In this document: positions 8,365-56,401 of the stretch, in pieces
Layout: every line of letters begins with the position of its first letter
How positions within the stretch are numbered: the first letter of the stretch is position 1
Source of the DNA: a phage
Direction: 5' to 3' (one strand)
Sequence record: OZ470804.1
DNA length: 64,000 bases
Position numbers and translations under genes: made by a program
Notes under the pieces: model-generated
Database searches by the model: none
Told to the model about the DNA's origin: nothing
The model's input: the letters and a program-made list of their open reading frames with translations, nothing else

Positions 8365-8868
8365 TCAACTTAGTTTTGCAAACTCTCCGTGGAGTTTTAC
8401 AGCAGCTTCACAGTAAGCTTTATGGGCTTCTTCTGGTGTGTCAAATAAACCAAGTGATGTCCTTTTACCTCTGCATGTTATAGCTGCCCTCCACTTATTA
8501 CAGTCTTTAAAGTAATGTACACCCTTGTAACCTGATTTATTAGTCGTCTGCTTTATTCTATTTTGTGCATTTCCGTATTTATCAGTCTCCCTAAGATTAG
8601 AAATGTGATTATTACTTCTGTTACCATCAATGTGGTCTATCATCTTAGTGGGTTTGTAACCATGTTCGAACCACCAAACGAGGTGATGAATTTTTATTAC
8701 GACATCTTTGAATTTAAGTACTTTGTAACCGTAAGCATCAGCACCTCCTGCAATCTGCCCAGCTTTAGCTTGTCTATTCCTGTCATACTTGTTGTAGAAG
8801 ACCCCTTTGTCGGGGTCGTAAATAAAATTATCCTTGTAATCTTGAAGTGTTAGTGTACGGCGTACCAT
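8365..8868 (-). CDS. HNH homing endonuclease with AP2 DNA-binding domain
   Basis: HNH motif DHIDGNRSNNHISNLRE plus AP2-like SGYKGVHYF..WRAAI; sits immediately downstream of polymerase gene. Confidence 0.75.
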   Translation of the reverse strand: MVRRTLTLQDYKDNFIYDPDKGVFYNKYDRNRQAKAGQIAGGADAYGYKVLKFKDVVIKIHHLVWWFEHGYKPTKMIDHIDGNRSNNHISNLRETDKYGNAQNRIKQTTNKSGYKGVHYFKDCNKWRAAITCRGKRTSLGLFDTPEEAHKAYCEAAVKLHGEFAKLS

Positions 8869-17417: not shown

Positions 17418-18464
17418 ATGGAGAAGTACACATTAACAAAACTTCCCGATTCAGTTACACATGTCTTTATTGACTCTGATAGCATTGCCTATAAAGGTGC
17501 TTGTGTAGTTGAGAAAGCAAAATATAAATATGTCAATAAACTCACAGCAGAAGAATCTGAACCATTTGATAATGCAAAAGATGCTGCAAGATGGTTAGCA
17601 GACCAGAGAATCCTTGTAGAAGAGCTTGGACTGACATTTGATGAAGATGAATGGGAAAGACAGACTTGGAAAGAAGCTAAGAGTGAAAAAGAAGCTATCA
17701 TGGCTACTCAGCAGGTTCTTCAGGAATGGCTTAAGGTTGTTGGTAAAGAAAGAACTTGGGTAGGTTATTTAACAGAGAAAGGTGTGCATAAACATAAAGA
17801 CATTAAAGGTCTTGAGCACCAATATCAAGGTAACCGCAAAGATGCTGTCACACCAACACACTTAGTTGCTTGTCGTGAGTATCTTCTGTCAAGGCCAGAG
17901 TTCAAATTGATTCTTGATGGATTTGAAGCTGACTCTATCGTTATTGCTAAAGCTGAAAAGATGGGTAAAAAGGCTGCCTTAATGAGTATTGATAAAGACC
18001 TTCGCCAAGCTGAAGGGACTTACTGCATTGATATGACCTATGAAAAGTCGCCTTTGATTTTCATTGCTGATAACAACGTTGGTGAAATTTGGGATTGTCC
18101 AATAAAATCGACACCAAAAGCTAAGAAGACAGTTGGGGTAGGTTTTAAATTTCTTTGTTACCAAGCTGTGGCTGGTGATAATGCGGATAATTATTTTGGT
18201 TTAAAGGGTGTTGGTAAGGTTACTATAATGAAAGCCCTTGAAGGTAAAACCACCTACAAAGAGTGTCTTGATGCAATTTATGAGCTTTATGCTAAGAAAG
18301 AGTCATACACTTATGTCTCGTGGGATGGTCAAACAATTACCAGAACACCTTTAGAGTTAATGCAGCAACACTTTTTCTTAGCTTATCAGGAAAGAAACAA
18401 GAAAGACGATTTCACTTTTGATAAGTATGGGTGGACACCAAATGTTAACTCAACAAACTCTTAA
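17418..18464 (+). CDS. 5'-3' exonuclease / flap endonuclease
   Basis: helix-3-turn-helix motif GLKGVGKVTIMKALEG and acidic metal-binding residues. Confidence 0.75.
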   Translation: MEKYTLTKLPDSVTHVFIDSDSIAYKGACVVEKAKYKYVNKLTAEESEPFDNAKDAARWLADQRILVEELGLTFDEDEWERQTWKEAKSEKEAIMATQQVLQEWLKVVGKERTWVGYLTEKGVHKHKDIKGLEHQYQGNRKDAVTPTHLVACREYLLSRPEFKLILDGFEADSIVIAKAEKMGKKAALMSIDKDLRQAEGTYCIDMTYEKSPLIFIADNNVGEIWDCPIKSTPKAKKTVGVGFKFLCYQAVAGDNADNYFGLKGVGKVTIMKALEGKTTYKECLDAIYELYAKKESYTYVSWDGQTITRTPLELMQQHFFLAYQERNKKDDFTFDKYGWTPNVNSTNS

Positions 18465-18942
18465 AGAATACCTGCACTATGACCCCGAAACAGGGGTCTT
18501 TACTTGGTTAGTTGGTAGAAAAGGTAAGGCCAAAGCTGGCTCAGTAGCAGGTCTTAAACATCATAGTGGTTATATTTATATAAAACTCTTCGGAAAAAGA
18601 TATGCAGCACACAGACTGGCATTCTTGTATATGAAAGGATACCTCCCAAAATTTGTTGACCACAAGAATGGTATCAGGCACGACAACTGGTTCGACAATT
18701 TGAGAGAGTGTAGCAGGTCAGACAACAACTGCAATGCAGTCAAAAGAAAAGATAATAAGTCTGGTGTGAAGGGTGTATATTACCACAAGCAAAGGGGTAG
18801 GTGGGCTGCACAAGTCAAGCATAATAAAGTATGCTACCATCTAGGTTTATTTGACTCTATCACTGAGGCTGAATCAGTTGTCAAAAAGAAAAGAGAAGAA
18901 CTCCATAGAGAGTTTACAAATCACGGAGAAGCTCATGAATGA
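18442..18942 (+). CDS. HNH homing endonuclease with AP2 domain
   Basis: FVDHKNGIRHDNWFDNLRE and SGVKGVYYHKQRGRWAAQV; paralog of 8365-8868. Confidence 0.7.
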   Translation: MLTQQTLKEYLHYDPETGVFTWLVGRKGKAKAGSVAGLKHHSGYIYIKLFGKRYAAHRLAFLYMKGYLPKFVDHKNGIRHDNWFDNLRECSRSDNNCNAVKRKDNKSGVKGVYYHKQRGRWAAQVKHNKVCYHLGLFDSITEAESVVKKKREELHREFTNHGEAHE

Positions 18943-19439
18943 TTAAAGTTAAAGGTTTTGGGAGTTGTCCAACTTATGGTCACTGGATTTCACTATGTGG
19001 TGAAGTTGACCCAGCAAAGCACTTTGGTTTTGTCTACCTAGTGTACTGCAAAAAGACTGGACAGTACTATTTGGGTAAGAAACAGCTTAACAGTGTGACA
19101 AAAAGAAAAGTTGCCGGTAAGACTCGGAAGAAGGTAGTCACTAAGGAGAGTGATTGGATGACTTATGAGACTTCTTCTGAGTATATTAAAAAAGATATTG
19201 AGAGCTTTGGAAAAGAATTTTTTGACTTTTACATTATTCAGACCTACTACACAAAAGGTGGCCTAGTCTATGGTGAAGCAAACCTTCAACATAAATTCGA
19301 TGTAATGACAAAAAGGATTGACTCGAAGCTCAGACTCTTCTACAATGCCAATATTGCAGCAATTAAGTTTATTACTAAAGAAACTTATGAAGATGCTGAA
19401 AAAAGAATCCATAAGGTAATGAAAGCAAATTGTGCTTGA
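18939..19439 (+). CDS. hypothetical protein
   Basis: 166 aa ORF. Confidence 0.5.
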   Translation: MIKVKGFGSCPTYGHWISLCGEVDPAKHFGFVYLVYCKKTGQYYLGKKQLNSVTKRKVAGKTRKKVVTKESDWMTYETSSEYIKKDIESFGKEFFDFYIIQTYYTKGGLVYGEANLQHKFDVMTKRIDSKLRLFYNANIAAIKFITKETYEDAEKRIHKVMKANCA

Positions 19440-19445
19440 TAACTA

Positions 19446-19691
19446 TTGAGAGAGAATAAAATGTTTAACAAAAGCAAAGCTGTGAGTCATGTAGCAAAAG
19501 TTGACAGTAAGATTGAAGAACTTGAGCGCATTCTTGCAAATGCTAAAGAGTCAATAATTAAAGAAGTTGAAGCTGTTGAATCTCAAATGCAGCACCTAAT
19601 GCTTAAACGCCAAGAGCTACGTGAGCATCTGGAATATATTGAAACACGAGAGCTAAAGGTTAACAGATTTTTAAGGAGTCCAAATGTTTAA
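19446..19691 (+). CDS. hypothetical coiled-coil protein
   Basis: 81 aa ORF. Confidence 0.45.
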   Translation: MRENKMFNKSKAVSHVAKVDSKIEELERILANAKESIIKEVEAVESQMQHLMLKRQELREHLEYIETRELKVNRFLRSPNV

Positions 19692-25227: not shown

Positions 25228-27372
25228 ATGAACAAAGTACAGATTATTAAAAAGAATGGCTCACTTGAAGAACCTGATATCAAAAAAGTTTTAGCAGCAG
25301 TAACTAAGTCAGCTAACAGGGTTGGGTATAAAGAACTTCCACCAGATGTTATCCAAGCTCTTGAGTCAGCATTTATGAGGATTCTGGTAAAGTCCACTAA
25401 GCAGAATAATTTGCTCATCTCGGTAAATGACATTCACAGTATTGTTGAGGGTGCTTTGGCAGAAGTCAATCACGAGATTTATGAGTCTTACTCAACATAT
25501 AGAAATTACCGTAAAGAGGTTGCTCAAAATTGGGATGAGCTTTACCAAAAGACTAAAGACACACTCTTCTTAGGTGACCGTGAAAATGCTAACTTTGACA
25601 GCAGTTTAATTTCTACAAAAGGTTCAATTATTCGTGGCTATCTGACTAAAGAAATCTTTAAACAATACCATTTAACACCAGAGGAACTCGAAGCCATTGA
25701 AAAAGGGTTTATCTACATCCATGACTTAAGAGACCTAATTTTTGGTGGTATCAACTGTTGCCTGTTTGACATCGGTAAAGTACTGAAAGGTGGCTTTGAA
25801 ATGTCTGGCATTGAATACTGTGAACCGAAGTCTGTGCTGTCAGCCTTACAGGTTATTGGTGATGTAGTTCTTTCAGCAACTGCACAGCAATTTGGTGGAT
25901 TTACTTTAGCAGAGATTGATAAGGTGCTTGTACCGTATGCTAAGAAGTCTCTACGCTATCATGCTGAGAAAGCAGCATCTTACGGTATTCCTAAAGAACA
26001 TTACCATAACTATGTCATGGAGCAGCTACAGATTGAATTAACTCAAGGCTTCCAGTCACTAGAGATGAAGCTAAATACTGTACCTTGTAGCCGTGGTGAT
26101 TTCGCATTCACAACTTTAACATTTGGTTTACTTGACTCAGATATGTCTAATGAAGACAACCGACTACAATACATGATTGCAAACACTATTCTTGATGTTC
26201 GCATGAATGGGCAAGGTAAGAGTAAGAAGCCCGTTGTATTCCCTAAACTGGTTTATATTCATGACCAGAAGAGACACGATGAGAATATCTGTCAAGGCCA
26301 ACTGTACAGTAAAGCTATTGAGTGTTGCTCTAAAGCTATGTATCCAGATTTCTTAAGTGTATCTGGTCACGGTGCTGTAGCAGAGGCTTTTGAGCGTTCT
26401 GGCAAGGTAATTTCACCGATGGGTTGCAGAGCTTTCTTATCCCCATATCTTAACGAGAATGGAGAAGAGTTCTACGTTGGTCGTGCTAACATTGGTGCTG
26501 TATCTTTGAACTTACCAATGATTTACCAGTATTCTAAAGAGAATGGTTTAGATTTCTGGAAAGAGCTTGATAAGTACCTAGAAATGATTCGCAGCTTCCA
26601 TAAGAAACGTTACGAAATGATTGCCAATATGCCAGCAAGTTCTAACCCTCTTGCATTCACACAAGGAGGATTGTACAAAGGAACTAAGAAACCTACTGAC
26701 AAGGTTGGTTGGGATATCGTGAAGTCCTTCACAGCTTCTTTTGGGGTTACTGCTCTTGATGAGTTATCTGTTCTTGCTGAAGGTAAACGACTTCATGAAG
26801 TTGGAAGTTCTAGTTTTGCATACGATGTTCTAGCATACATTAACATGAAAACTGAAGAGTTTAAGAATGAAGATGGCTTCCTGTATGCAGTATATGGCAC
26901 TCCAGCAGAGTCATTGTGTGGAACTCAGCTAAAACAGTTCAGAGATATGTTTGGTGTTATTAAAGGAGTTTCTGACAAGGAATATTTTACAAACAGTTTC
27001 CATATGAATGTTGCAGCAGATATCTCACCATTTGAGAAGCAGGACTTAGAAGAGCCATTCTTCCATATCTGTAGAGGCGGCAGAATCCAGTATGTGAGAG
27101 TAGCTAACCCAGAAAACTTACCAGCACTTAAAAGTTGTATTACAAGAGGGATGTTGAAGGGTTTTTATCAGGGACTTAACTTTGACTTAGCAATCTGTGA
27201 ACATTGTGGTAACAGGCCAAAGGCTGATGTTGAAGAATGTGAGGTTTGCCATTCACATGATATCTCTGTGATTAACAGAGTGTGTGGGTATCTTGGGTGG
27301 ACTAAGATTAAAGGTGAATCCCGAATGAATGATGCAAAAATTGCTGAGATTCGTGACAGGGTTTCTATGTAA
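25228..27372 (+). CDS. nrdD: anaerobic ribonucleotide reductase large subunit
   Basis: C-terminal zinc ribbon CEHCGN..CEVCHS and glycyl-radical motif RVCGYLG. Confidence 0.85.
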   Translation: MNKVQIIKKNGSLEEPDIKKVLAAVTKSANRVGYKELPPDVIQALESAFMRILVKSTKQNNLLISVNDIHSIVEGALAEVNHEIYESYSTYRNYRKEVAQNWDELYQKTKDTLFLGDRENANFDSSLISTKGSIIRGYLTKEIFKQYHLTPEELEAIEKGFIYIHDLRDLIFGGINCCLFDIGKVLKGGFEMSGIEYCEPKSVLSALQVIGDVVLSATAQQFGGFTLAEIDKVLVPYAKKSLRYHAEKAASYGIPKEHYHNYVMEQLQIELTQGFQSLEMKLNTVPCSRGDFAFTTLTFGLLDSDMSNEDNRLQYMIANTILDVRMNGQGKSKKPVVFPKLVYIHDQKRHDENICQGQLYSKAIECCSKAMYPDFLSVSGHGAVAEAFERSGKVISPMGCRAFLSPYLNENGEEFYVGRANIGAVSLNLPMIYQYSKENGLDFWKELDKYLEMIRSFHKKRYEMIANMPASSNPLAFTQGGLYKGTKKPTDKVGWDIVKSFTASFGVTALDELSVLAEGKRLHEVGSSSFAYDVLAYINMKTEEFKNEDGFLYAVYGTPAESLCGTQLKQFRDMFGVIKGVSDKEYFTNSFHMNVAADISPFEKQDLEEPFFHICRGGRIQYVRVANPENLPALKSCITRGMLKGFYQGLNFDLAICEHCGNRPKADVEECEVCHSHDISVINRVCGYLGWTKIKGESRMNDAKIAEIRDRVSM

Positions 27373-29455: not shown

Positions 29456-29468
29456 GAGTCTATGATTA

Positions 29469-29494
29469 GGGAACTGTAAAGGTTCCCTTTTTTA
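29469..29494 (+). terminator. intrinsic terminator
   Basis: GGGAAC..GTTCCC hairpin followed by TTTTTT. Confidence 0.7.
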
Positions 29495-29507: not shown

Positions 29508-30023
29508 ATGTACCTGTCAAACCTGAAACGTTCGGCTGCAATGTCAGTGTTAAGGCTCAGCTTTGAGGAACGTCAAGAGTTCATTGACTCCCACCAATAC
29601 GACCCTTCTAACTCAAATCACATGATTCTCTGGAATCGTGATAACTTCCGTGAAAGAGCACTTGTCCGTTATTACCCACACTACACAATAGATAACCTGT
29701 ATGAATGGTGTGTTGTGAAGAACACTATTGCAACACTTAACAATCTTTGCAGGTATACAGGCAAGCAAACATTTACACTAGGTCACCACAAGCCTGTTAC
29801 AAAAGGTGGTGAACATCACTGTGCAAACTGGTTTATCCAAACTAAAGCTGATAACCAGAAGCAAGGAGATAGACTCCTAAGCATCCCTAAGATGACCTAT
29901 GAAGAGCAAGAGAAATATATCAAAAATAATATGCCAGATGTGCTTGACAACAACTATACAGATTTGGCAATATCTCTCCTGTTGAAGTTTGAGACAGTTT
30001 ATAGGGCAACTTACAATGGCTAA
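29508..30023 (+). CDS. hypothetical protein, possible HNH-type nuclease
   Basis: LGHHKPVTKGGEHHCANWFIQTKADNQKQ resembles an HNH core. Confidence 0.35.
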   Translation: MYLSNLKRSAAMSVLRLSFEERQEFIDSHQYDPSNSNHMILWNRDNFRERALVRYYPHYTIDNLYEWCVVKNTIATLNNLCRYTGKQTFTLGHHKPVTKGGEHHCANWFIQTKADNQKQGDRLLSIPKMTYEEQEKYIKNNMPDVLDNNYTDLAISLLLKFETVYRATYNG

Positions 30024-30294
30024 AGCAGATTGGGAAATAAAAGACCTAATAAGTGATGCTGGAAATGGTTGTGAGATGTATATGATTCGTGGTCATGTAC
30101 CAGACCCATTAGCTCTTGAGATGATTGACCATCACACAAATGGATTCTACAAAGAACTAGGTGAACCAAATGTTGAACGCACTTGGACAAAACCAGTACC
30201 AGATAGCACAGGCAACTGTTCAGTCCTCTATCACATTGTGAATCCACAAAAATGCAAAACAGCTATGGCTGTGACATTCGTAACTTTTGATTGA
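30016..30294 (+). CDS. hypothetical protein
   Basis: start taken at MAKADWEIK. Confidence 0.4.
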   Translation: MAKADWEIKDLISDAGNGCEMYMIRGHVPDPLALEMIDHHTNGFYKELGEPNVERTWTKPVPDSTGNCSVLYHIVNPQKCKTAMAVTFVTFD

Positions 30295-30306
30295 GAGAGA
30301 AAAACT

Positions 30307-31188
30307 ATGAAAACATCTATCCGTGTTATAATTCATTCACCGACAAAAGGGTCTCATGAAGAAGAGTTTAACATCATCCAGTTCCCTTCTGGTGAGATTG
30401 GTGGACACTTTTCACAAGAGCTTGTTGACTTTACTGCTCACGCAGCATCATCCATCAACAATGTGATTATGATTGTAAAAGGCTATGATAAAGACACATT
30501 GTTTGCTGTGGCACTTGCTAAAGAAGCAATTGATGATTTAGTTCCTCATGAATATGCCTTAAAGACTGTCATCTTTTACTACTTACCAAATGCACGATAT
30601 GACCGTCACATGTTTAAAGGTGATGCAGCAGCTTTGAAGGTTTTTGCTAAACAGGTTAATGCAATGGGGTTTGGTGCGGTCTGTGCAGTTGACCCTCACA
30701 GTTATGTGCCAGATAACCTGTTTAACTGCTTCCAAAGTATTCCTCAAAATGAAATTGCAGTCCACTATGCAAATGACCCACTGGTTGATTACTTAGTAGC
30801 CCCAGATGCAGGTGCTTCTAAGAAGATTGCAGAGACTGCTAAAGAGGTGGATAAACCATACATCACAATGTCTAAAGTACGTAACCTTCAGACTGGTGAA
30901 ATTACTGGTATGCGAATCCTTGATGATGTGGATTTGACAGATAAAACTGTCATGATTCTTGATGATATCTGTGATGGTGGTCGAACCTTCATAGAAGCAG
31001 CTAAACATCTTCGTGAAGCAGGTGCAAAACGTGTGGAACTCTATGTAACACATGGTATCTTCTCTAAAGGTGTTGAAAACCTTCTTGACAATGGTATTGA
31101 CCACATCTACACTACAAACTCTTTAGGGGAAGCTAAAGACCGTGGTTTAACACATTATGGTCAAGTTACTGTAGCAAACCTTGATTAA
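30307..31188 (+). CDS. ribose-phosphate pyrophosphokinase (Prs) family protein; candidate ADPR-pyrophosphate synthetase
   Basis: PRPP-binding loop VMILDDICDGGRT and HGIFS flexible-loop motif. Confidence 0.7.
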   Translation: MKTSIRVIIHSPTKGSHEEEFNIIQFPSGEIGGHFSQELVDFTAHAASSINNVIMIVKGYDKDTLFAVALAKEAIDDLVPHEYALKTVIFYYLPNARYDRHMFKGDAAALKVFAKQVNAMGFGAVCAVDPHSYVPDNLFNCFQSIPQNEIAVHYANDPLVDYLVAPDAGASKKIAETAKEVDKPYITMSKVRNLQTGEITGMRILDDVDLTDKTVMILDDICDGGRTFIEAAKHLREAGAKRVELYVTHGIFSKGVENLLDNGIDHIYTTNSLGEAKDRGLTHYGQVTVANLD

Positions 31189-31197
31189 AACTTTATA

Positions 31198-31218
31198 GGG
31201 GGCTTTTAAGCCCCATTT
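31198..31218 (+). terminator. intrinsic terminator / attenuating hairpin
   Basis: GGGGCTTTTAAGCCCC hairpin followed by ATTTT. Confidence 0.5.
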
Positions 31219-31235
31219 TGAGAGAGATTAAAAAG

Positions 31236-33017
31236 ATGACTAAATCACTTTATGCAGTGCCAGCAGGTTTAAACGCAGATGCTTACAAATCTGGTCACAT
31301 TTACCAGTACCCTAGTGCAACAGAGTACTTAATGTTTAACCTGACACCACGTAGTGACAAATGGTTTAACAGTCCCTTAGCAATTGATGGTGTAGTTGCT
31401 TTTGGTATTCAACGTTTTGTTAAAGATTACTTGATAGACCACTGGAACGCCACCTTTTTTGAACGTGACAAAAAAGAAGCAATTGATGAAATCTTAGAAG
31501 TCATGAACGGTGTTCTGGGTAAAGATGCTATTGGTCGAGAGCATTGGGAAGCACTTCATGACTTGGGTTATCTACCAGTTGAAGTATACGCTGTAGAAGA
31601 AGGAACAGTTGTCCCTATGCGTGTACCAATGGTTGTCTTCCAGAACACTGTTTCAGGTTTCCATTGGGTAGCGGGGTATCTGGAAGATGCTTTCTCTGCT
31701 GAGATTTGGAAGGCTTGTACCATTGCAACTATTGCATTGCACTACAAACGTATCTGTAAGAAGTGGGCTGACCTTACTTGTGACAACGACTTGCATTTAC
31801 CTTATCAGTGCCATGACTTTGCTATGCGTGGTATGTCCGGCTTTACTGATGACGCATTTAACGCTGTAGGCCACTTAACCAGCTTTAAAGGGACTGATAG
31901 CTTCCCTGCTGTATATACAGCTAAACGCATCTACGGTCAGTCCTACCCAATCTCTGATATTGGTAGCTCTGTACCAGCCACTGAACACTCTGTAATGTGT
32001 GCAAACATTGCTTGGGAAGGTGGTAATGAGTTGATTGAAGAAGAAAGACGCTTCAAAGGTGAGTTACAAACCTTCCGTCGCTTCTTAACAGAAACTTACC
32101 CAACTGGTATTGCAAGTGTTGTTTCAGATACTTATAATTTCTGGAGAACTGTATCAGTCATATTGCCAGAACTCCGTAAAGAGATTATGGAACGAAATGG
32201 CAAACTGGTAATTCGTCCTGATTCTGGAGACCCTGTACATATTGTCACAGGTTATAAAGCAATTCACTTAGAGTGTGCTAAAAAGGCTTATTATGAACAC
32301 CTAAGCAAGCTGGAAGCCAGCGACACAATGTTGAATGCTGTTCTGAACATGAAGCTTGAAAACATCAATTATGGTATTGCTGGATGGCTACTGTTAGAAG
32401 GCTATGAGATGGTTGTTGACAGAGAAGACTTTGAAGTTGCTGATACAGTGATGTTGAAAAATGCTTATATGGTTGGTTCTGCAAACGTTGTAACACGTCC
32501 TGTAGCAGAGATTGATGGAGCTATTAAGACCCTGTATAACATCTTTGGAGGGACTATTAACTCTAAAGGTTTTAAGGTACTGGATGAGCACATTGGCCTT
32601 ATTTATGGCGACTCTATCACGTTGGAACGTGCAAATGAAATACTGAAGCGTTTGTATGAAATGGGTTTTGCAAGCTCTAACGTAGTGTTTGGTGTAGGTT
32701 CTTACACTTACCAGTACATGACTCGTGACACCTTTGCATTTGCTGTCAAAGCAACCCTTGCAAGCATTGGTGGTAAAGAGATTATGCTTGCAAAAGACCC
32801 TAAAACAGATAGTGGTGTTAAGAAGTCTGCTTTTGGTGGTGTAGCACCTATGTGGGATGGTGAAAATCTGAAAGCTGTAGATGGCTATGGGTTCCAGAGC
32901 TTTGCAGATGCACTTGAACATCCAGCTTGTGCTTTACGTCTAGTCTTTAGCGACTCTGAGCAGTTCGGCTACACAACTCTTGGTGATATTCGAAATAATA
33001 TTGACAAGCAGCTTTAA
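31236..33017 (+). CDS. nicotinamide phosphoribosyltransferase (Nampt) family protein; candidate Namat
   Basis: ADAYKSGHIYQYP, SSVPATEHSVM and IRPDSGDP motifs match Nampt; about 100 aa longer than typical Nampt. Confidence 0.7.
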   Translation: MTKSLYAVPAGLNADAYKSGHIYQYPSATEYLMFNLTPRSDKWFNSPLAIDGVVAFGIQRFVKDYLIDHWNATFFERDKKEAIDEILEVMNGVLGKDAIGREHWEALHDLGYLPVEVYAVEEGTVVPMRVPMVVFQNTVSGFHWVAGYLEDAFSAEIWKACTIATIALHYKRICKKWADLTCDNDLHLPYQCHDFAMRGMSGFTDDAFNAVGHLTSFKGTDSFPAVYTAKRIYGQSYPISDIGSSVPATEHSVMCANIAWEGGNELIEEERRFKGELQTFRRFLTETYPTGIASVVSDTYNFWRTVSVILPELRKEIMERNGKLVIRPDSGDPVHIVTGYKAIHLECAKKAYYEHLSKLEASDTMLNAVLNMKLENINYGIAGWLLLEGYEMVVDREDFEVADTVMLKNAYMVGSANVVTRPVAEIDGAIKTLYNIFGGTINSKGFKVLDEHIGLIYGDSITLERANEILKRLYEMGFASSNVVFGVGSYTYQYMTRDTFAFAVKATLASIGGKEIMLAKDPKTDSGVKKSAFGGVAPMWDGENLKAVDGYGFQSFADALEHPACALRLVFSDSEQFGYTTLGDIRNNIDKQL

Positions 33018-33031
33018 AAGTATATGATAAG

Positions 33032-33054
33032 AGGCTCCTACGGGAGCCTTTTTA
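33032..33054 (+). terminator. intrinsic terminator
   Basis: AGGCTCC-TAC-GGGAGCCT followed by TTTTT. Confidence 0.7.
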
Positions 33055-40317: not shown

Positions 40318-40518
40318 ATGGCTGACTTCTGCAAAGACTGTTCTATCGAAATGTTTGGACGTGATACAGGTGACTTAAAAGGTCTTATCACTGAAGATGA
40401 CTTTAAAGCTGGCTATGCAATGCCAGTAATCTGTGAAGGCTGTGGGTGCATCTGGGTAGACCATGAAGGGCAACGTGTAAAACCTTCAGAAGATAAAGAA
40501 TCTTGGGAGAGATGTTAA
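40318..40518 (+). CDS. Cys-rich small protein
   Basis: CKDC..CEGCGC pairs, 66 aa. Confidence 0.45.
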   Translation: MADFCKDCSIEMFGRDTGDLKGLITEDDFKAGYAMPVICEGCGCIWVDHEGQRVKPSEDKESWERC

Positions 40519-41304
40519 ATGGGTATTGTAAAAATCATCAAAGGCGATATCTTTGACGCCTTTGATAAAGGTAAGTTTGATATCATTGGGCATGGTTGCA
40601 ACTGTATGAATTTCATGGGTGCAGGTATTGCAGCAACTATTTCTAAGCGTTATCCAAAAGTGTATGATACTGACACAGAAGTTTACCTGTTTGCAGGTGG
40701 CATCCGTCACAAACCCTGTGAGAATTTACTAGGTAATTTCTCTGTAGCACGCTTAAAACAAGGTCGTATAGCTAACCTTTACACCCAACTTCATACTGGT
40801 AAAGATGCCCGATACAGTGCTTTAGAGTCATCTTTGAAACAACTTAACAGATACTGTGAAGTTAACCAGTTGAAGAAAGTCGGTCTGCCTATGATTGGTG
40901 CAGGTATCGGTGGACTTGACCCTCAAGCTGTCACAGTTATCATCAATCAGGTTATGAAGAGCGTAGATGTTTATCTGTATGTCTATGAAGCAAAAATGTA
41001 TAATGAGTTACACTCAGGTTGGAAGAACTACTGTGAACCAGAATACTTTGCAGGTGTAGCAGTGTTCATAGATAACGCAGTTACCCTCTTCAGACGAAGA
41101 AAAGGTAAGATACATCAAAGTAACCCTCCGGTTGAAAAGATGTCTCTAAGTAACGCTCTAGTTACCCACCTGTCAAAGAGCAATCACAGAATTGCAGTAA
41201 CATTTGGAAGTGATGCAGATGCTTATATCTATGCAAGAACTGATGAGGATATCGAGACGGTTTTCTCTTCACCAGAGCTTACCTTCTTAGACGCAAAGAA
41301 CTAA
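40519..41304 (+). CDS. macro-domain (ADP-ribose binding/processing) protein
   Basis: IKGDIF..FDIIGHGCNCMNFMGAGIAATISKRYP and VGLPMIGAGIGGLDP match macro-domain signature; about 110 aa C-terminal extension. Confidence 0.65.
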   Translation: MGIVKIIKGDIFDAFDKGKFDIIGHGCNCMNFMGAGIAATISKRYPKVYDTDTEVYLFAGGIRHKPCENLLGNFSVARLKQGRIANLYTQLHTGKDARYSALESSLKQLNRYCEVNQLKKVGLPMIGAGIGGLDPQAVTVIINQVMKSVDVYLYVYEAKMYNELHSGWKNYCEPEYFAGVAVFIDNAVTLFRRRKGKIHQSNPPVEKMSLSNALVTHLSKSNHRIAVTFGSDADAYIYARTDEDIETVFSSPELTFLDAKN

Positions 41305-56029: not shown

Positions 56030-56401
56030 ATGAAAAACAGAACAAACAAAGGCCAGTTTAAAAAAGGCCAGTCTGGAAACCCATCTGGAAGACCAAAAGG
56101 CTCTCGTAACAAAAGTTCACTCGTAAAAGCTCAACTGACCATTGATAATTCTGCTGAGTTTGCTGCAAAGTTGTTTGAAGCGATTGTTACAAGGGACGCT
56201 GCTAAGCTTGCAGAGTTTGGGTTAAACACAGACGACGTAACCATCAAGAGCATGATTGAGGTCGGTAAAACTATCATGACCCACTCAGCAGGTGAGATGA
56301 AAGCAATTGCAGCAGACACTAAGAAGACTCCTGATAATGGTGGTCAGTCTCAGACAGATAACAAACCAACGTTCTCTGCTGTAGCGACTCTCAAAAAATA
56401 A
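56030..56401 (+). CDS. hypothetical protein with GQSGNPSGRPKG motif
   Basis: 123 aa ORF; motif is common in phage proteins of unknown function. Confidence 0.5.
   Translation: MKNRTNKGQFKKGQSGNPSGRPKGSRNKSSLVKAQLTIDNSAEFAAKLFEAIVTRDAAKLAEFGLNTDDVTIKSMIEVGKTIMTHSAGEMKAIAADTKKTPDNGGQSQTDNKPTFSAVATLKK

Follow-up and report, generated by a model that had tools for sequence, protein, structure and literature searches.

A Felixounavirus adps-namat gene pair very probably encodes the NARP1 pathway of NAD+ reconstitution

The question raised by the locus at 30307-33017 (+ strand) is whether a Prs-family gene and the Nampt-family gene directly downstream of it encode canonical NAD+ salvage or a pathway that rebuilds NAD+ from ADP-ribose (ADPR), as the preliminary description had proposed in naming the pair a NARP1-type counter-defence module. 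The window, that is, the whole stretch of DNA analysed, covers 64 kb out of a genome of roughly 88 kb. The pair is very probably the NARP1 operon of a Felixounavirus, with an activity predicted from orthology to the pair of phage Bas63 and from homology to that of phage SPbetaL1. The NARP1 proposal was borne out by Bas63 orthology, the occurrence of the window adps allele in Table S1 of Osterman et al., the Namat signature and the lack of an Nmnat match in the scanned ORFs. Identity, orthology, catalytic and specificity residues, fold and this lack of an Nmnat match in the scanned ORFs were established here, and the features are listed in Table 1.

Table 1. Features of the adps-namat region and of the distal Macro-domain gene in the window.
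Feature	Coordinates	Strand	Evidence or detail
Terminator-like hairpin followed by T-run (TTTTTTATTTT tail), 8-bp stem	29468..29488	+	dG -12.0, z -2.6
RBS-like motif TTGAGAGAGA, ends 6 nt before adps ATG	30291..30300	+	motif scan
adps, predicted ADPR-pyrophosphate synthetase, Prs-family, 293 aa, ATG start	30307..31188	+	profile matches, Bas63 orthology, Table S1
Adps K190 codon (= SPbetaL1 Adps K162)	30874..30876	+	alignment
Adps LDDICDGGRT loop (aa 218-227), PRPP-synthetase-type ribose-phosphate binding loop	30958..30987	+	alignment
Intergenic GC hairpin GGGGCU-UUUA-AGCCCC, then AUUUUG, between adps and namat	31199..31214	+	centroid dG -11.4, z -2.0
RBS-like motif TTGAGAGAGA, ends 8 nt before namat ATG; includes TTG 31218	31218..31227	+	motif scan
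namat, predicted nicotinamide ADPR-transferase, Nampt-family, 593 aa, ATG start	31236..33017	+	profiles, Bas63 97%, AF2, Foldseek
Selectivity-clamp loop region PRSDKWF	31347..31367	+	S40-D41-K42-W43 same as in Bas63
PATEHS motif (aa 247-252), catalytic histidine H251	31974..31991	+	alignment
Short, variable stretch of about 15 aa (aa 258-272) inserted relative to SPbetaL1 Namat	32007..32051	+	alignment
IRPDSGDP motif (aa 326-333); R327 = SPbetaL1 R306, D329 = D308	32211..32234	+	alignment
Large insertion, aa ~340-427, about 77-88 residues	32253..32516	+	alignment with SPbetaL1; AF2
Selectivity-clamp helix motif (SCH) GSYTYQYMTRD, aa 488-498; Y490, Y494 = adenine-stacking F392, Y396	32697..32729	+	alignment
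Intrinsic terminator 3' of namat, 10-bp stem	33029..33052	+	dG -16.6, z -3.3; 0/200 shuffles fold as well
Gene for 261-aa Macro-domain protein, candidate accessory	40519..41304	+	Macro Pfam 5e-7, phrog_335

The order of a Prs-family gene directly upstream of a Nampt-family gene was confirmed by the ORFs and by Pfam and PHROG matches far beyond chance (Adps: Pribosyltran 1.9e-11, Pribosyl_synth 2.7e-9 and PHROG 619 at 5e-97; Namat: NAPRTase 2.6e-34 and PHROG 448 at 9e-202). All motifs quoted in the preliminary description were present, namely LDDICDGGRT and THGIFS (aa 248-253) in Adps and DAYKSGH (aa 15-21), PATEHS and IRPDSGDP in Namat. Both genes lie on one strand, with namat beginning 47 nt past the end of adps, the published NARP1 criterion being a distance within 10 genes. 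The region was matched by 257 phage records, nearly all of Felixounavirus type and from E. coli, Salmonella and Shigella, with EF202P1 as the top match (99.2%), and synteny with Bas63 was observed for NrdD, NrdG, small ORFs, adps, namat, rIIA and rIIB.

In canonical salvage, a true Prs would make PRPP, a true NadV/Nampt would make NMN, and host NadR or PncC would complete NAD+. This is the pathway suggested by the Pfam, PHROG and GenBank labels of the two proteins, 'ribose-phosphate pyrophosphokinase' and 'nicotinamide phosphoribosyltransferase', which is also the function given in most GenBank records. The window Adps, however, was 77% identical to Bas63 Adps and shared more residues with SPbetaL1 Adps (30% identity) than with E. 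coli Prs (24%), and SPbetaL1 Adps yielded no product in an assay built to test Prs activity. Sequence comparison thereby places the window protein with the phage Adps clade and not with cellular Prs, a membership that rests on orthology and not on an ADPR-versus-R5P specificity signature. In addition, window-type Adps proteins ('MKTSIR...'), including the representative of the EF202P1 cluster, were flagged as Namat-associated in Table S1 of Osterman et al., and the exchange K162A in SPbetaL1 Adps, at the position of the conserved catalytic lysine K190 of the window protein, abolished NAD+ reconstitution (Osterman et al., bioRxiv 10.1101/2024.02.11.579819).

In its N-terminal ~180 aa, the window Adps represents an allele unlike that of Bas63, with about 66% protein identity in this part and a DNA identity of 47-82% per 60-nt block over 30319-30798 (the 5' part of adps); the C-terminal ~100 aa were about 97% identical. 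Because the N-terminal ~180 aa differ from those of Bas63, the allele tested in vivo is not the allele of the window. The window allele was the commoner one, found in 151 phage records at an identity of at least 90%, whereas the Bas63-type allele accounted for 97 records (60-80% identity). Purification of Bas63 Adps did not succeed (Osterman et al., bioRxiv 10.1101/2024.02.11.579819).

For namat, the mechanical ORF list gave 31218..33017 (+) with a TTG start and 599 aa. The TTG at 31218 was rejected as the start because the RBS-like motif TTGAGAGAGA begins with it and the Bas63 gene is annotated from the ATG; the start is most likely the ATG at 31236, giving 593 aa. The protein is thus ~100 aa longer than SPbetaL1 Namat, HdNadV and human Nampt (480-500 aa), as had been noted before, and was 97% identical to Bas63 Namat over 593/593 aa. 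The AF2 model reached a pLDDT of 93, and the nearest solved structures were those of SPbetaL1 Namat (9w5w/9w5x; sequence E 2e-127, Foldseek E 1e-54, TM 0.95 on target), which ranked ahead of HdNadV and human Nampt in both the sequence and the Foldseek comparison. The core residues D15, Y17, F195, R198, D221, H251, R327 and D329 were all conserved in the alignment, with the SPbetaL1 equivalences D215/D221, F189/F195 and R306/R327 and with H251 as the catalytic His; R306G/A makes SPbetaL1 Namat an inactive enzyme.

Two properties of Namat are in line with canonical salvage: HdNadV is only moderately more distant than SPbetaL1 Namat (E 6e-105 vs 2e-127), and Namat still makes NMN from PRPP in vitro, so that some canonical Nampt-like flux may be possible. 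The window Namat nevertheless bears, judging from the alignment, the published ADPR-PP selectivity-clamp signature that separates Namat from Nampt. Tyr occupies both stacking positions of the SCH motif (counterparts: GSFTYQYNTRD in SPbetaL1, GAQTYQRNTRD in HdNadV and GGALLQKVDRD in Xcc), whereas canonical Nampt/NadV lack these aromatics, which argues against canonical salvage. The clamp loop fits the published pattern (third residue Arg, or Lys/Tyr followed by a stacking residue), and a stacking role is predicted for it; Bas63 is the Lys case of the NAR paper, in which the fourth clamp-loop residue was reported to stack on adenine.

The extra ~100 aa of Namat are accounted for by two insertions, both also observed in Bas63 Namat. 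The large insertion, which is missing from SPbetaL1 Namat, bacterial homologues and Nampt, was modelled as a small α/β subdomain with a pLDDT of 93-97 over the segment in the AF2 model of Namat; when aa 335-432 were folded alone from the single sequence, the pLDDT was 58, and <50 over the C-terminal 38 residues. The subdomain (aa ~340-427) could serve regulation or partner binding, and the structural paper contains no discussion of it for this lineage.

In the proposed mechanism, a host defence (SIR2-HerA, type I Thoeris, DSR or Kongming) would cleave NAD+ into ADPR and nicotinamide. Adps would then pyrophosphorylate the free ribose of ADPR in an ATP-driven reaction to form ADPR-PP, and with Namat nicotinamide would displace the pyrophosphate of ADPR-PP to give NAD+ directly, with no NMN intermediate, and the refilled NAD+ pool would make phage replication possible. 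Both reactions and the anti-defence phenotype are predicted for the window pair from Bas63 genetics and metabolomics and from SPbetaL1 biochemistry and crystal structures. With the SPbetaL1 enzymes, the Adps reaction (ADPR + ATP to ADPR-PP) and the Namat reaction (ADPR-PP + nicotinamide to NAD+) were obtained in vitro. In Bas63, NARP1 was defined by deletion of genes 79-80, which caused about 20-fold sensitisation to SIR2-HerA; ADPR-PP was seen only when wild-type phage infected defence-carrying cells, and neither pncC nor nadR of the host was required for the counter-defence (bioRxiv 10.1101/2024.02.11.579819). That a pair 97% (Namat) and 77% (Adps) identical to that of the window works without host pncC and nadR, with ADPR-PP detected in vivo, speaks further against canonical salvage, which is considered very improbable here.

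A NARP2-type pathway, known from Vibrio phage KVP40, in which PRPP, nicotinamide and ATP are turned into NAD+ by Nampt and a bifunctional Nmnat/Nudix enzyme, would also involve a Nampt-family gene such as the one present. No CTP_transf_like (Nmnat) or NUDIX Pfam match was found in the scanned ORFs of the 64-kb window (ORFs of at least 45 aa, minus the DNA polymerase and NrdA ORFs), in agreement with the earlier remark that no NMN adenylyltransferase is visible nearby, and these ORFs also gave no Pfam match to the RyR domain, by which RyDEP-associated NARP1 is recognised. This lack of an Nmnat, Nudix or RyR gene argues against NARP2, as do the adps gene directly upstream of namat and the label 'Adps-associated' given to the Namats of Bas63, wV8 and Felix O1 in the published Namat table, so a NARP2-type pathway has a negligible probability.

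The preliminary description had also placed the pair between two terminators. A strong terminator was indeed found after namat, but the nearest terminator-like site upstream lies before two small ORFs (29508-30023 and 29989-30294) that stand between it and adps, and a further hairpin splits the gene pair; a strict terminator-bracketed two-gene unit was therefore rejected. The intergenic hairpin, whose stem is kept in Bas63, was not scored as a terminator in the terminator scan; it could terminate weakly, act as an attenuator or stabilise the RNA. Because it lies between both genes, adps and namat may not be strictly co-transcribed. The motif TTGAGAGAGA with at most one mismatch had 18 matches compared with 7.7 expected, several of them just 5' of start codons.

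A gene for a Macro-domain protein is located 7.5 kb downstream of namat, past 12 ORFs that include rIIA and rIIB. It encodes the only Macro protein among the scanned ORFs of the window, and no Macro match was found among the ten ORFs neighbouring NARP1. Its Pfam match (5e-7) was above the gathering score; the protein was 28% identical to the validated Adpp of Vibrio phage Gary over the full Adpp length (E 6e-15), and both belong to phrog_335 (1e-113 and 1e-50, respectively). Membership in a NARP1-AP operon was rejected, since the gene lies outside the operon and many phages not known to carry NARP1 have members of its family.

It was also considered that the Macro protein (bas63_0095 in Bas63) might extend NARP1 in trans, acting as an ADPR-1''-phosphate phosphatase that supplies ADPR to Adps and providing NARP1-AP capacity against aRES-type defences. 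Besides the Macro domain, the full-length similarity to Adpp and the shared PHROG, this reading is favoured by the conservation of the protein in Bas63 (92% identity) and by the position of its gene on the strand of namat behind the same RBS-like motif TTGAGAGAGA; moreover, the published survey covered only two genes on either side of NARP1, and its list includes no Escherichia or Salmonella phage. Against it, the protein has a higher identity to T4-type proteins, 33-36%, compared with 28% to Adpp, its closest solved relatives are OARD1/TARG1-type deacylases, it carries an extra C-terminal 100 aa, and the 12 ORFs with rIIA and rIIB separate its gene from namat. The Macro family was also present in 3,017 phage records, Tequatrovirus T4-labelled and other T4-like E. 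coli phages among them, and T4 is not known to encode NARP1. A role in trans is thus rather unlikely; if it were true, NARP1-AP capacity would be commoner than the published 15%, for which only Macro genes within two genes were counted.

NARP1 is an important recent discovery, by which phages rebuild NAD+ and defeat a whole class of defences. The system has already been described, and the present copy holds no novelty because it is of the type lineage of the published NARP1 and the window adps allele is already in the discoverers' table. The practical value lies in annotation: in the majority of the 257 GenBank records that match, the genes are called 'ribose-phosphate pyrophosphokinase' and 'nicotinamide/nicotinate phosphoribosyltransferase', names that misstate the substrates of Adps and Namat.

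Compared with known systems, the window pair shares its folds with the cellular enzymes E. coli Prs, Haemophilus ducreyi NadV (9ke8) and human NAMPT, together with the predicted chemistry of pyrophosphoryl transfer to ribose C1 and of nicotinamide transfer with a phospho-histidine. Identity to cellular enzymes was 24% both for Adps (E. coli Prs) and for Namat (human Nampt, Foldseek alignment), and the adenine-stacking aromatics of the window SCH motif are absent from the canonical enzymes. NARP2 of KVP40 likewise raises NAD+ during infection via a Nampt-family enzyme, but it needs Nmnat, has no Adps and starts from PRPP, whereas the window carries a pair predicted to work from ADPR, with no Nmnat match in the scanned ORFs. 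The Adps and Namat core recurs in the NARP1-AP system of Vibrio phage Gary (Adps-Adpp-Namat; bioRxiv 10.64898/2026.01.28.702374), and a member of the Adpp PHROG is encoded in the window as well. In Gary, however, the Macro phosphatase gene lies between adps and namat, whereas in the window none lies between them or within two genes on either side, and the product of the Macro gene 7.5 kb away has the additional C-terminal ~100 aa relative to Gary Adpp.

The SPbetaL1 pair (Bacillus phage; Adps WIT26982.1; Namat PDB 9w5w/9w5x) is the biochemically and structurally characterised NARP1 and shares the two-gene order, the catalytic residues and the type of SCH motif with the window, at identities of 30% (Adps) and 37-38% (Namat). 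Its Namat lacks the two window insertions (about 15 aa and about 77-88 aa), and its clamp loop has R40 where the window has K42-W43. Bas63 (JohannRWettstein, MZ501086.1; bas63_0079 adps, bas63_0080 namat; Osterman et al., bioRxiv 10.1101/2024.02.11.579819) shares genus, gene order and neighbours with the window; its nrdD is split by a homing endonuclease, whereas that of the window is uninterrupted. Both Namat insertions, both clamp elements, the intergenic hairpin and the downstream terminator are common to Bas63 and the window.

A Prs-family gene (adps) was found directly 5' of a Nampt-family gene (namat), the two open reading frames being separated by 47 nt. The first protein, Adps, matched Pfam Pribosyltran (1.9e-11), Pribosyl_synth (2.7e-9) and PHROG 619 (5e-97), and the second, Namat, matched NAPRTase (2.6e-34), NAMPT_N (2.7e-5) and PHROG 448 (9e-202); chance does not explain the family assignment of either protein. 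The ORFs and these matches agree with the gene order given in the preliminary description, and the motifs quoted there were all present at their positions. A mechanical ORF list had started namat at TTG 31218 (599 aa), a candidate that was rejected. The start was taken at 31236 because this TTG lies inside the motif TTGAGAGAGA, of which 31218 is the first base, and because the orthologue in Escherichia phage JohannRWettstein (Bas63) is annotated from the matching ATG. With at most one mismatch, TTGAGAGAGA has 18 matches in the window versus 7.7 expected, and copies stand 6-10 nt 5' of the starts of adps, namat, a Macro-domain gene and several others, so the motif is probably a ribosome-binding context favoured by the phage.

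Features of the adps-namat region and of the rest of the window
Feature	Position	Strand	Remarks
adps	30307-31188	+	ATG start, 293 aa
namat	31236-33017	+	ATG start, 593 aa
TTGAGAGAGA sites	30291-30300; 31218-31227; 40503-40512; 19446-19455; others		first three at adps, namat and Macro gene
Adps allelic region	30307-30850		5' two-thirds of adps; 5' as far as about 30200
Terminator-like site	29468-29488		nearest 5' of adps
GC-rich hairpin	31199-31214		in adps-namat gap; then AUUUUG
Sigma-70-like site	33001-33028		11/12; overlaps namat end
Intrinsic terminator	33029-33052	+	3' of namat; strong; dG -16.6 kcal/mol, z -3.3
Namat short insertion	aa 258-272		about 15 aa, after HSVMCANI; versus SPbetaL1 Namat
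Namat large insertion	32253-32516		aa ~340-427 (structural segment); between RPDSGDPV...G and GAIKTLYNIFGG helix
Macro-domain protein	40519-41304	+	261 aa; Pfam PF01661 5e-7, 30 bits (gathering score 22)
nrdD	25228-27372		uninterrupted
Homing-endonuclease-like ORF	8365-8868	-	among replication genes
Homing-endonuclease-like ORF	18418-18942	+	among replication genes
Homing-endonuclease-like ORF	18939-19439	+	among replication genes
DUF5681 protein	56030-56401		precedes DUF2828/DUF7788 protein
DUF2828 + DUF7788 protein	56484-57899	+	471 aa; just 5' of tRNA block
tRNA genes (22)	58065-63555	+	mixed with small ORFs
HNH-type ORFs (2)	59521-59919; 60509-60961		within tRNA cluster

The pair is supported as orthologous to the type NARP1 operon, that of Bas63; the system is already known. 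Without gaps and end to end, Adps is identical to bas63_0079 at 227 of 293 positions (77%) and Namat to bas63_0080 at 578 of 593 (97%). In the discovery study (Osterman et al., bioRxiv 10.1101/2024.02.11.579819), deletion of Bas63 genes 79-80 reduced plating about 20-fold on SIR2-HerA, only the wild-type phage kept NAD+ up, host pncC and nadR were dispensable for the counter-defence, and ADPR-pyrophosphate (ADPR-PP) was detected only in wild-type-phage infection of defence-carrying cells. The biochemistry there was performed with homologues from Bacillus phage SPbetaL1: Adps makes ADPR-PP from ADPR and ATP and gave no product in an assay built to test Prs activity, Namat forms NAD+ from ADPR-PP and nicotinamide, with ADPR-PP preferred to PRPP, and Adps K162A and Namat R306G are inactive (bioRxiv 10.1101/2024.02.11.579819). 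From close orthology to these experimentally characterised proteins, we infer that the window pair would act by the same mechanism. The N-terminus of the window Adps (MKTSIR...) occurs 92 times in the Adps table of that paper, flagged as Namat-associated in all among the entries listed, including the EF202P1 cluster representative OP172796_00123, so the module, allele included, has already been catalogued as NARP1. The NARP1-type reading first proposed for the pair is therefore supported by Bas63 orthology, the published table and the Namat clamp signature.

Namat structures ranked above Nampt by both sequence and fold. Against solved structures, the Namat sequence matched 9w5w/9w5x best (E 2e-127), which Foldseek describes as crystal structures of Namat containing NAD or nicotinamide, followed by HdNadV (6e-105), Xanthomonas Nampt (4e-51) and mammalian Nampt (about 1e-41 to 1e-38). 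An AlphaFold2 model from a 34-sequence alignment (pLDDT 93, pTM 0.91) retrieved Namat chains first in the Foldseek PDB search (E 1e-54 to 1e-51, TM 0.93-0.95 on target), with HdNadV next and the human and mouse Nampts after it. A two-part selectivity clamp has been defined for Namat, one part being a variable loop that gives a third stacking residue, and the Bas63 loop is cited as an example of the type in which Lys is followed by a stacking fourth residue (PMC12774641). The window Namat carries the same loop as Bas63 Namat (S40-D41-K42-W43) and the clamp motif GSYTYQYMTRD (aa 488-498; GSFTYQYNTRD in SPbetaL1), whereas the canonical enzymes lack its aromatic residues (GAQTYQRNTRD in HdNadV, GGALLQKVDRD in Xcc). 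The catalytic core is complete (D15, Y17, F195, R198, D221, A248, H251, R327, D329, G458, D459), most of these residues being invariant in the 34-sequence alignment. A canonical Prs and NadV pair, as most GenBank records annotate these genes, is contradicted by this signature and by the Bas63 genetics and metabolomics, and is considered very unlikely; the residual NMN synthesis documented for Namat in vitro may be a side activity. Chromosomal Namat-like proteins of 495-496 aa with a GSYTYQYNTRD-type motif were also observed in Klebsiella, Cronobacter, Kosakonia, Erwinia and Phytobacter, in agreement with the bacterial NARP1 homologues that have been reported.

NARP2, which needs an Nmnat, has a negligible probability here. 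Ten neighbouring ORFs were scanned one by one and the other ORFs of at least 45 aa as concatenates, the DNA polymerase and NrdA ORFs being left out because they match Bas63 genes so annotated. The scanned ORFs, from the 64 kb of the window in a genome of roughly 88 kb, gave no match to CTP_transf_like, NUDIX or RyR, in line with the earlier remark that no Nmnat is visible nearby. Furthermore, the whole-genome annotation of Bas63 has no gene named Nmnat, and the Bas63, wV8 and Felix O1 proteins are labelled "Adps-associated" in the published Namat table.

The NARP1 assignment of Adps draws on other evidence. Adps is 30% identical to SPbetaL1 Adps versus 24% to E. coli Prs, its K190 pairs with SPbetaL1 K162 in the alignment, and among solved structures it is closest to archaeal Prs enzymes (E 5e-18). 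The published literature yielded no structural determinant of specificity for ADPR versus R5P, so membership is based on orthology, Namat adjacency and the published table rather than on a specificity motif. The N-terminal ~180 aa occur as two alleles among Felixounavirus-type phages, the window type (151 records, with identity of 90% or more) and the Bas63 type (97 records, 60-80%), both of which keep the RxDR, DPHS, APDAGA and DDICDGGRT elements; between the two types, identity is about 97% in the C-terminal ~100 aa and in Namat. In 60-nt blocks, the DNA is 47-82% identical to Bas63 over 30319-30798; identity climbs to about 88-93% near 30800 and is about 83-100% beyond, which suggests a recombination junction within adps.

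The greater length noted for the Nampt homologue is due to two insertions relative to SPbetaL1 Namat, both nearly identical in Bas63 Namat. About 77 residues of the larger (aa 351-427) were unmatched in the HMMER alignment; its length differs among phage Namats, and it is missing from the 495-aa bacterial homologues, SPbetaL1 Namat and Nampt. In the full-length model it is confidently predicted as a small alpha/beta subdomain (three helices, two strands, helix, strand; pLDDT 93-97); folded by itself without an alignment it reached pLDDT 58. The word "insertion" is absent from the main text of the Namat structural paper (PMC12774641).

The pair had been described as bracketed by terminators, which holds on the 3' side, where a strong one follows namat. 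Upstream, the nearest terminator-like site lies before two small ORFs of 171 aa (phrog_3500, weak HNH-like match) and 101 aa (phrog_4726), so the transcription unit may take in both. A hairpin, its stem conserved in Bas63, lies between the genes and may act as an attenuator or make the transcript more stable, so adps:namat expression may depart from a simple 1:1. In one related record, a promoter is annotated beneath the Namat match.

By megablast, 257 phage records matched the 2.7-kb region, 227 of them along 80% or more of it. Nearly all the records are from Felix-O1-like myoviruses that infect E. coli, Salmonella, Shigella and Citrobacter; Escherichia phage EF202P1 was closest (99.2%). The gene order is that of Bas63 (Felixounavirus), with nrdA, nrdB, glutaredoxin, nrdD and nrdG 5' of the pair and rIIA and rIIB 3' of it, and the window also encodes thymidylate synthase, DHFR, ligase, DNA polymerase, primase-helicase, endolysin and an Ig-domain protein. 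Bas63 has a similar tRNA cluster. A homing endonuclease interrupts the Bas63 nrdD, unlike that of the window. The homing-endonuclease-like ORFs among the replication genes comprise two of HNH_3 + AP2 type and one SegE-type GIY-YIG.

Remaining interest lies in the Adps allelic mosaic, the Namat insertion and the distal Adpp-like Macro gene, 7.5 kb 3' of namat. The aRES/NARP1-AP survey covered ±2 genes around NARP1, a range in which this Macro gene does not fall, and its tables contain no Escherichia or Salmonella phages (bioRxiv 10.64898/2026.01.28.702374). The Macro family was found in 3,017 phage records, some of them labelled Tequatrovirus T4 and others from further T4-like E. coli phages. 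T4 is not known to encode NARP1. A functional link between the Macro gene and NARP1 is offered as a hypothesis, and a rather doubtful one, because the family is this wide and the protein is nearer to T4-type proteins (33-36%) than to Adpp. The protein has a C-terminal extension of ~100 aa, and its Bas63 counterpart (bas63_0095, 92% identity) is annotated "putative phosphatase"; with Adpp of Vibrio phage Gary, a validated ADPR-1''-phosphate phosphatase, it has phrog_335 in common and 28% identity (E 6e-15).
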